Of a stretch of DNA of 64,000 nucleotides, positions 1,611 to 25,551 are shown piece after piece. This DNA comes from a virus. Location: positions 64,001-128,000 of IMG/VR virus record IMGVR_UViG_3300031823_000001, one strand, 5' to 3'. Within the stretch, counting starts at the first letter, position 1. Every line of letters begins with the position of its first letter. The notes below the pieces were generated by a model. It saw only the letters and a list, made by a program, of their open reading frames with translations, made no database searches and had not been told where the DNA came from. Made by a program: the position numbers and the translations under genes.

Positions 1611-1866
1611 ATAAGTCAGACCTACACCCGGGCCGTACTGCCCGGCATCCTTCTCCCGCTTGTCCAGGCTCGGCCTGGCGAGTTCGGGCAACCTAACGCG
1701 GCCCCGAGGGGTCTCCCCTGCCTCGGTCTGACGATCATGGTGACGGCCTCAGCCCTAGCCGCCACGGGAGCCCCGCCTGTACCTCGCTCCTTCTAACTGC
1801 CGGACGTTTCCACCCTCCGCTACCCGGACGTATCTGCAAGGCCGAAGCCCTCGGTGGGACACTACG

Positions 1867-1939
1867 AGCCCCGGAACGGAATCGAACCGTTGACCTCACC
1901 ATTACGAGTGGCGTGCTCTGCCATCTGAGCTACAGGGGC
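1867..1939 (-). tRNA. tRNA-Thr(CGT)
   Basis: Loop CTCGTAA. Confidence 0.9.
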
Positions 1940-2016
1940 TGGATGCCGCGCTCGATCCGTCTAAGCTACCGGCCCACGGGCGGACCGGACGGGACTCGAA
2001 CCCGCCTCTACGGCTG
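1940..2016 (-). ncRNA. Circularly permuted tRNA-like element
   Basis: Order on minus strand: GCCGT-AGAG-T arm(GCGGG TTCGAGT CCCGT)-CCGGTCC-G-CCCGT-GGGCCGG-TA-D arm(GCTT..GAGC)-GCGGC; all four stems pair. Confidence 0.75.
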
Positions 2017-2092
2017 CTGGGGTACCAGGTCTCGAACCTGGAACCTCGGGCACCAGACGCCCGCGCTCTGCCATTGATTGAGCTATACCCCA
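2017..2092 (-). tRNA. tRNA-Gln(CTG)
   Basis: Loop GTCTGGT, U1-A72, G73. Confidence 0.88.
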
Positions 2093-2119
2093 ATGCGGCG
2101 TTTACCGTCTGCCGTGGAC

Positions 2120-4074: not shown

Positions 4075-4166
4075 GGCAGTGCTCTCGCGTTTGGTTACGG
4101 TTCGCCGCACCCGCTGTTGAGCTATGCCCCCTCAGGGGCACCCGGTCTGGGGCCGGGATCGCTGCC
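4075..4166 (-). ncRNA. Circularly permuted tRNA-like element with expanded D loop
   Basis: GGCAG-CGAT-CCCGG(CCCCAGA)CCGGG-TGCCCC(TGAG)GGGGCA-TA-GCTC..34 nt..GAGC-A-CTGCC. Confidence 0.65.
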
Positions 4167-5141: not shown

Positions 5142-5369
5142 CTAACTCTGCCGGGGGTCCGGGTTCTCTTCCGCCAGCAGGCGCTTCACCTCGGACTCGC
5201 GGAACCTGCGGTGCCCGCCCGGGGTGCGGACCGACCTGATCCTCGGCGGCTTCGCCGCTGCCCAGCGGGTCACCGTCTTGGGATCGACCCGGAAGAGGGC
5301 AGCCACCTCGCCGGGGGTGAGCAGCGGGTCGTCTTGGCCGTCTTTGGGCACGCGAGCAGGAACAGTCAT
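5142..5369 (-). CDS. bldC: BldC-like MerR-family HTH regulator
   Basis: LLTPGEVAALFRVDPKTVTRWA..RTPGGHRRFRESEV closely matches Streptomyces BldC; SD AAGGAG. Confidence 0.88.
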   Translation of the reverse strand: MTVPARVPKDGQDDPLLTPGEVAALFRVDPKTVTRWAAAKPPRIRSVRTPGGHRRFRESEVKRLLAEENPDPRQS

Positions 5370-25038: not shown

Positions 25039-25551
25039 CTAGGACGGCAGCGGGTTGAGGTAGGCGTGCTCTCCGAACAGCTCCAGGGCAGCCTCGTTGT
25101 AGGCGCGGGCGCAGGCTTCCTGGCTGTCCGAGTGCAGGATGGTCCGAGTCTTTCCTTTTATGGTGATGCGGGCGCGCCACTTATTCATCTGCTTGTCCCA
25201 TCCGACCCCCTTGTACTTAGAGGTGTGCCGCGTAAGGTCCGGTCTTCTGTTCTTGTCATTGTGCAGGCCGTCGCGCAGGTTGCGGCGGCGGTTGTCCAGC
25301 GTGTCATGGAAGATGTGATCCGTGCGCGGGTATCCGGTGATCATCGAGTGCATGGAGATGATCTTGTAACCTCCGCCGATCTGACGGATGGCGGTGCGAG
25401 CGTACGGCCCGTTGGTACGTCCGTTGCGCTTGATTTCAAGCACGTGTCACCTGTGCCTGATGACCAGCTCGTAATCTTCGACGTCGATTCGTGCGACTCT
25501 CCCGGCTGCCTTCTTGCCGGACAGGGGAACCTCGATATGCGCCGTCGCCAA
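25039..25551 (-). pseudogene. HNH-AP2 endonuclease with in-frame TGA at 25447-25449
   Basis: TTG start with SD GGAGG: MATAHIEVPLSGK..IDVEDYELVIRHR*HV..MH..DHI..LDNRRRNLR..SKYKGVGW..KWRARI..ARAYN. Confidence 0.8.

Follow-up and report, generated by a model that had tools for sequence, protein, structure and literature searches.

What occupies the 77 nt that separate tRNA-Gln(CTG) from tRNA-Thr(CGT) in the tRNA array of an uncultured soil actinophage? The phage is represented by a complete IMG/VR record of 161,740 bp with direct terminal repeats, of which bases 64001–128000, a stretch of 64,000 nt referred to here as the window, were analyzed. Its high-GC genome encodes a myovirus tail sheath, a protein whose nearest cultured relatives are found in cluster C mycobacteriophages and Gordonia phages at about 26% identity. 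The array comprises 40 tRNAs on the minus strand; most other neighboring pairs lie 0–11 nt apart or have unstructured or unrelated spacers between them. The array tRNAs carry no encoded CCA and therefore depend on endonucleolytic 3′ processing. According to the borders assigned by ARAGORN and Rfam, the gap between tRNA-Gln and tRNA-Thr extends from 2016 to 1940 on the minus strand and measures exactly 77 nt, and G73 of tRNA-Gln, at 2017, sets the predicted 5′ end of the element that fills it.

The original prediction offered two readings of this gap: a permuted tRNA gene whose product is ligated, or an anticodon-less decoy or mimic. We find that the element is a new, pared-down cousin of the YrlA RNAs that bind Ro, a known type of tRNA mimic, and that it is most likely no working tRNA.

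Fold and parts of the element

From 5′ to 3′, the element consists of the 3′ strand of an anticodon stem, a T arm, a closed acceptor stem, a D arm, and the 5′ strand of the anticodon stem (Table 1). This is the permuted tRNA-like fold that had been proposed for the whole gap, and all 21 of its pairs form; 100,000 shuffles of the same letters gave 8.6 pairs on average and never more than 19. With −30.2 kcal/mol, the fold is within 0.8 of the minimum free energy (MFE) of −31.0; the MFE z-score of the isolated 77-mer, −0.38, is unremarkable and uninformative. The G3:U70 pair and G73 are present in the sequence as claimed. The T arm, which had been called perfect, is slightly less so: all of its pairs form and its loop is canonical, but pair 49:65 is a G-U. 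When the halves are rejoined in tRNA order, they give 72 nt that ARAGORN calls as tRNA-Trp(CCA). Joining the ends does create the predicted 7-nt loop A-U-CCA-C-A with U33, and the unjoined RNA does end in CCA by virtue of its tail AUCCA, a CCA tail that is absent from the other members of the family described below.

Table 1. Features of the element and its surroundings, in window coordinates
Feature	Position	Strand	Basis and remarks
tRNA-Gln(CTG), upstream neighbor	2017..2092	−	ARAGORN; Rfam tRNA 51.9 bits; U1:A72, G73; no encoded CCA
Entire permuted tRNA-like RNA, predicted processed product	1940..2016	−	Sequence, fold, YrlA match, model R1
2-nt overhang CA, 5′ end of element	2015–2016	−	Sequence
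Closing helix, 5′ strand GCCGU (tRNA positions 39–43)	2010..2014	−	5/5 pairs with 1945–1949
Variable region AGAG, 4 nt	2006–2009	−	Sequence
T arm GCGGG-UUCGAGU-CCCGU, canonical T loop	1989..2005	−	YrlA alignment
Acceptor-like stem CCGGUCC/GGGCCGG, 7 bp, G3:U70	1969..1988	−	Sequence
Acceptor loop GCCCGU, 6 nt (G73 plus CCCGU)	1976–1981	−	Sequence
Putative RNase P site	between 1976 and 1975	−	Analogy with M. smegmatis YrlA
U8-A9 and D arm GCUU-AGACGGAUC-GAGC, with G18 G19	1950..1968	−	YrlA alignment
Closing helix, 3′ strand GCGGC (positions 27–31), and 5-nt tail AUCCA	1940..1949	−	Sequence; tail abuts G1 of tRNA-Thr
tRNA-Thr(CGT), downstream neighbor	1866..1939	−	ARAGORN; Rfam tRNA 59.3 bits
Second, divergent module of the same topology	4075..4166	−	3 nt past tRNA-Ala(GGC); modules of canonical appearance occupy the syntenic site in G001 and G008, two relatives

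In sequence, the element is a singleton. Scans of viral contigs, metagenome contigs, and prokaryote genomes with exact and degenerate patterns revealed no close homologue and returned just classical YrlA RNAs or ordinary tRNAs. When the region was compared with GenBank phages by blastn, matches were confined to tRNA-Thr, tRNA-Lys, and tRNA-Met genes, and scans with the published M. smegmatis YrlA primer sequences yielded no match.

Relation to the YrlA RNAs

YrlA RNAs bind Ro60 and are modified by TruB and DusA. They make up Rfam family RF02553 and have been described by Wang et al. (2018, 10.1101/312249) as L-shaped tRNA mimics of permuted-tRNA-like form. In the window, the Rfam model of this family matches 1943–2013(−) over model positions 23–88 of 114, which comprise the tRNA-like core only. 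The match scores 34.6 bits, far under the Rfam gathering cut-off of 69 bits, with E values of 1.1e-4 (8 kb against all families) and 5.2e-7 (entire phage). To model positions 1–22 and 89–114, cmscan found no match in the element. Tandem tRNAs are a false positive of the YrlA model that has been warned of (PMC4201824); this explanation was rejected, since the match lies wholly between two complete tRNAs and is clear of both.

Just 2 and 5 nt separate the closing helix of the element from the mature tRNAs, so that no Ro-binding stem is possible. Together with the core-only match, this agrees with the claim that the topology is that of YrlA with the Ro-binding stem absent. The flanks also lack the GAUGCG..UUACUUCA and GUUCUC features seen in Ro-linked relatives of the phage. 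The original prediction had allowed for an ordinary YrlA RNA with Ro nearby, which is not what we find: in addition to the missing stem, no TROVE domain is encoded in the complete 161.7-kb phage, and so none within 4 kb of the element. A protein homology search with the Ro protein of relative G053 found no homologue in the phage (best tblastn E value 1.2), and none was found for DUF2828 (PF11443) in a search whose positive controls remained silent.

Compared with the YrlA RNAs of Salmonella Typhimurium, Mycobacterium smegmatis, and cluster C mycobacteriophages, the element displays the same order of closing stem, T arm, closed acceptor, and D arm. The sequences of its T and D stems are near the YrlA consensus, its 7-bp acceptor is as in the M. 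smegmatis form that is cleaved by RNase P, and the actinophage setting is similar, phage YrlA having been described in cluster C mycobacteriophages. In contrast, it has neither the long 5′/3′ stem and Ro-binding sequence, nor a Ro gene within 4 kb or elsewhere in the phage, nor an anticodon-arm-like or variable hairpin ahead of the T arm. It measures 77 nt rather than about 110–150 nt and sits flush between two tRNAs.

We consider it probable that the element is a Ro-independent, YrlA-type tRNA mimic, a bare core that is released by the processing of its neighbors. The absence of both a Ro stem and a Ro gene in the phage leads to the proposal of Ro-independent action. This corresponds to the anticodon-less decoy or mimic of the original prediction, which is favored by the core match, the lack of space for a stem, the lack of Ro, and the recurrence of a covarying fold in related phages (see below). 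The element would be transcribed within the 40-tRNA operon and freed by the maturation of its neighbors, with RNase Z or 3′ trimming acting past G73 of tRNA-Gln and RNase P acting at G1 of tRNA-Thr. The released RNA would then adopt the L shape of a tRNA, the elbow of T loop and D loop being intact.

The acceptor of M. smegmatis YrlA is 7 bp long, and RNase P cuts this RNA in the acceptor loop both in vitro and in vivo, after which CCA is added (Chen et al. 2014, PMC4201824). By analogy, the acceptor loop of the element may be opened by RNase P and the new 3′ end CCA-tailed, which would result in a two-piece RNA; cleavage in the loop is a reasonable expectation because a 7-bp acceptor, G73, and CC are all present. 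A gene for a CCA-adding enzyme was not found in the phage. For YrlA, an elbow-binding factor has been proposed to recognize the conserved T and D stems (Wang et al., 10.1101/312249). Most likely, the element would act as a decoy for, or compete for, a factor recognizing the tRNA elbow or acceptor, with no part in decoding; this role is a conjecture.

Other phage tRNA clusters also give rise to structured RNAs that are not tRNAs, such as species 1 and 2 of T4 (also called RNA C and D) and the T5 RNAs, which are freed by tRNA-processing enzymes. The element would resemble these small stable RNAs in being co-transcribed and released with tRNAs. With two-piece tmRNA it has in common the permuted order, in which the T arm and the acceptor 3′ strand come first, as well as G3:U70 and an intervening loop that would have to be excised. 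Unlike two-piece tmRNA, the 77-nt element contains no mRNA-like domain, tag frame, or pseudoknots, and its discriminator is G73, not A73. ARAGORN made no tmRNA call, and the Rfam tmRNA_permuted model reached 10.7 bits in a match confined to the T arm.

Ligated and split tRNA readings

Permuted tRNA genes, as summarized in 10.1101/312249, occur in Cyanidioschyzon merolae, other algae, and one archaeon (Soma et al. 2007; Maruyama 2010; Chan 2011), where a bulge-helix-bulge motif, a splicing endonuclease, a ligase, and a circular intermediate lead to canonical tRNAs. Were the element a true permuted tRNA gene, its ends would be ligated into the 7-nt anticodon loop and its acceptor loop opened by RNase P and RNase Z, and the product would be a UGG-reading tRNA that accepts Trp (G73, CCA) or Ala (G3:U70). 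It is consistent with this that ARAGORN names the rejoined sequence tRNA-Trp(CCA), that the overhangs total exactly 7 nt and include U33, that G73 fits bacterial tRNA-Trp, and that a 7-bp acceptor would, by analogy with M. smegmatis YrlA (PMC4201824), be a good substrate for RNase P.

We nevertheless regard ligation into a tRNA as extremely unlikely, on account of C37, the odd core, the lack of a ligase gene, a CCA tail and a G3:U70 pair that are private to this copy, and a tRNA-Trp that the phage already possesses. Position 37 of tRNAs is near-universally a purine, and it would be a C after joining. The geometry of the core is off as well, in that either nucleotide 26 is missing or the variable loop has 4 nt. 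The G3:U70 pair, which would invite mischarging by AlaRS, occurs in just 1 of the 23 family sequences, namely, this one, and in no other family member would the ends rebuild an anticodon loop with U33. A canonical tRNA-Trp(CCA) is present elsewhere in the array (64.9 bits; ARAGORN, Rfam).

The chemistry of the ends points in the same direction. RNase P and RNase Z leave 3′-OH and 5′-P ends and RtcB requires 3′-P and 5′-OH, so that RtcB cannot join the ends predicted for the element. Profile searches of the phage for RtcB, Rnl1 (PF09511; a search without a positive control), and Rnl2 found none of them, and the look for RtcB, RNA ligase, and Ro genes that had been suggested thus came up empty in the complete phage. 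A bulge-helix-bulge motif is impossible here because the flanks are tRNAs, and no splicing endonuclease is known from bacteria (10.1101/312249). The element therefore differs from the algal and archaeal genes in having no such motif and no such enzymes found, in its C37 if joined, and in ends that are not conserved; the ligated permuted tRNA of the original prediction is not supported.

The tRNA might also remain unsealed. We consider it very unlikely that the element is an encoded split tRNA, cut by RNase P in its acceptor loop and then CCA-tailed, in which two halves of 36–39 nt stay together while the anticodon loop is permanently open between positions 36 and 37. If it were, it would be a built-in copy of the product of an anticodon nuclease, which could be sealed into an extra decoder of UGG or be charged by AlaRS via G3:U70. 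It could also mimic a nicked tRNA and so jam the sensing or repair of cut tRNAs by the host. In all of these cases, the tRNA operon of the phage would carry a counter-defense RNA.

Modules of the same fold in related phages

We retrieved 17 relatives of the phage by alignment of the tail sheath protein and ran against their whole records a covariance model, R1, built from nine array-embedded modules. Scores fell into two groups, true modules reaching about 40–79 bits and tandem-tRNA junctions about 40 bits or less. The element, itself among the training sequences of R1, scores 68.3 bits at 1945–2014.

Six relatives without Ro carry modules inside their tRNA arrays: G001, G008 (identical to G049 at these loci), G045, G046, and G047. 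There are one to four modules per array, some of them as tandem pairs, and they mostly start 1–4 nt past a tRNA or another module; the modules found by R1 in the relatives score 42–79 bits. Their sites vary and include the Pro(GGG)–Pro(CGG) and Pro(CGG)–Phe gaps as well as the stretches that follow Ala(GGC) and Leu(GAG). The number of modules among relatives ranges from 0 to 4; in G044, a complete relative, R1 detects no module of at least 40 bits. Five more distant relatives, G050, G051, G053, G054, and G057, have paired modules with a TROVE gene within about 1.5 kb. The 5′ flanks of these modules bear GAUGCG..UUACUUCA and their 3′ flanks GUUCUC, and the two flanks pair as a long stem. This arrangement is the classical phage Ro–YrlA cassette.

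Both groups together provide 23 distinct sequences, in which 93.7% of the cells are paired, compared with 34–49% when partners are slid. In an alignment that was fitted to R1, with 9 of its 23 rows having trained the model and with sequences that are mutually related, 17 of the 20 pairs are altered on both sides; 0 of 500 shuffles attain the observed values. These changes include all four modeled pairs of the closing helix (helix 1) and all seven pairs of the acceptor (helix 3); the T stem (helix 2) is 98% paired and the D stem (helix 4) 97%. The covariation in related arrays that the original prediction had asked about is thus observed, within an alignment fitted to the model, and, to judge by these sequences, structural selection acts on the entire family. 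We also considered the CCA tail and G3:U70 as family traits and rejected both as private to this copy: the 3′ tails of other modules read GC, ACC, CAA, GAUC, UCAGAC, and GCAACC, and several of the modules are not flush at the 3′ side.

The second module of the window (Table 1) belongs to a set found 2–4 nt past tRNA-Ala(GGC) in all three close phages, at 4075–4166(−) in the window, 5202–5273(−) in sequence L002, and 2019–2097(+) in sequence L127. The closing stems differ yet pair (GGCAG/CUGCC, GGGGGC/GCCCCC, and GGGUGA/UCACUC). The copy in the window no longer has the canonical T loop, its D loop has acquired a 34-nt insert, and R1 gives no match to it at E ≤ 1e-3. An identical 24-nt motif, GGCAGGAUAAACCGGGCGAAACGU, is present at 1498–1521(−) in the window and at 5169–5192(−) in L002; it is immediately preceded by tRNA-Leu(GAG) here and by the post-Ala module in G001. 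Pieces of spacer RNA thus seem to move between positions of the array.

In G047, G046, and G045, two modules are arranged head to tail, 1–3 nt apart, amid Pro-family tRNAs (L179 1432–1572(−), L180 1501–1644(−), and L181 1501–1636(−)), an arrangement reminiscent of the paired YrlA-like RNAs by Ro in the more distant relatives. G008 and G048, both without Ro, also have modules of the same fold outside the tRNA array, with long complementary flanking stems. In G008, these are located at 25091–25156 and 25241–25308 (L199 1501–1566 and 1651–1718), and in G048, at L191 1501–1568; the second G008 copy and the G048 copy have a common 3′ motif, UUCAGGAUGA. The modules outside the array may represent a different, stem-bearing class.

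The turnover of spacers raises the question of whether the element is a nonfunctional relic. It would then be what rearrangement in a rapidly shuffling array has left of two tandem tRNAs at their junction, the 3′ half of one copy followed by the 5′ half of the next, and would be processed and degraded. In the two closest phages, G001 and G008, the order of the array is the same, and the syntenic site is occupied by spacers of 67 and 63 nt that are unrelated to the element and do not resemble a tRNA, so that no orthologue is present there; this particular copy may be dispensable. Absence at this site in close relatives, with spacer content turning over fast, would suit a relic, as would modules that shift position, e.g., the GGCAGGAUAAACCGGGCGAAACGU motif, and that number from 0 to 4 among relatives. 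The published model in which YrlA derives from dimeric tRNA transcripts (10.1101/312249) likewise agrees with such an origin.

Against a relic speak the four intact helices (21/21 pairs), the canonical T loop, and G18 G19. Identity to the array tRNAs of the three phages has a maximum of 76% and a median of 67%, so the three arrays hold no plausible recent parent tRNA, and a recent copy of the array's own tRNA-Trp was rejected at only 71% identity; an old relic would be expected to have decayed. Moreover, a relic would need two independent deletions that ended exactly in one anticodon loop and left the remainder abutting both neighbors, and the family appears to be under structural selection. 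We therefore regard a relic as unlikely.

Alternatively, the element could act in cis, as a processing or insulator spacer that provides folded flanks for RNase P and RNase Z or guards against mispairing of pre-tRNAs, with no later function. Array modules mostly begin 1–4 nt past the 3′ end of a tRNA or past another module, the array tRNAs depend on endonucleolytic 3′ processing, and tRNA-like signals for RNase P are known, e.g., MALAT1 mascRNA, as cited in 10.1101/312249. However, most tRNA pairs of the array would be processed without such a module, and the Gln–Thr junction of the relatives lacks it. That the sequences of the T and D stems are conserved, as they are in YrlA bound by Ro, suggests a factor acting in trans (10.1101/312249). 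A purely cis-acting spacer is, in our view, unlikely; the spacer and the relic are the chief competitors of the decoy.

A Ro-independent mimic, the reading that we prefer, has a bearing on how YrlA RNAs are viewed. What defines these RNAs is that they partner with Ro60, and this clade of phages offers a natural separation of the tRNA-like part from Ro, as some members keep Ro and the stem and others, this phage included, have only bare cores in the tRNA operon. Bare cores without Ro imply either a Ro-independent use of the tRNA-like module or raw material for Y RNAs. The modules of this clade that have neither stem nor Ro could conceivably be the tandem-tRNA intermediates that the model of a dimeric-tRNA origin of Y RNAs predicts. 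The occurrence of bare modules in one branch and of stem plus Ro in another fits that origin, with either loss or gain of Ro. The "spacers" in tRNA arrays of large actinophages are thus not empty and hold a shuffling set of structured RNAs.

Viral contigs were also scanned with a loose pattern consisting of a T loop, 18–28 nt, and a D arm. This revealed 124 sites, 46 of which stand alone outside any tRNA called by ARAGORN; most of these 46 combine a perfect T stem with a 6–7-bp acceptor closed by a short loop. The stand-alone modules occur in 43 records, 42 of which match YrlA below threshold and just 20 of which encode TROVE. The best of these phage YrlA-like matches scores 57.7 bits and none of the 42 records reaches 69, even within 1–2 kb of TROVE; the Rfam threshold therefore misses phage members.

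In seven near-identical contigs (L004, L024, L028, L038, L054, L073, and L093), a T arm that is part of no ARAGORN tRNA precedes tRNA-Trp(CCA) by about 20 nt; this orphan may be an unrecognized odd tRNA. The orphan T arms upstream of tRNA-Trp, found in eight contigs including these seven, were set aside as unrelated to the element.

Annotators can take modules of this kind for tRNAs. Gene 166 of Mycobacterium phage Myrna (NC_011273.1 95152–95254; L220 553–655) is annotated as tRNA-Asp, but its acceptor strands do not pair; the YrlA-like module lies at about 95.19–95.25 kb. It comprises a T arm, then a closed acceptor hairpin, then a D arm, and scores 47.6 bits with R1. Myrna gene 166 looks like a YrlA-type RNA inside a tRNA array, 36 kb from the Ro gene of Myrna.
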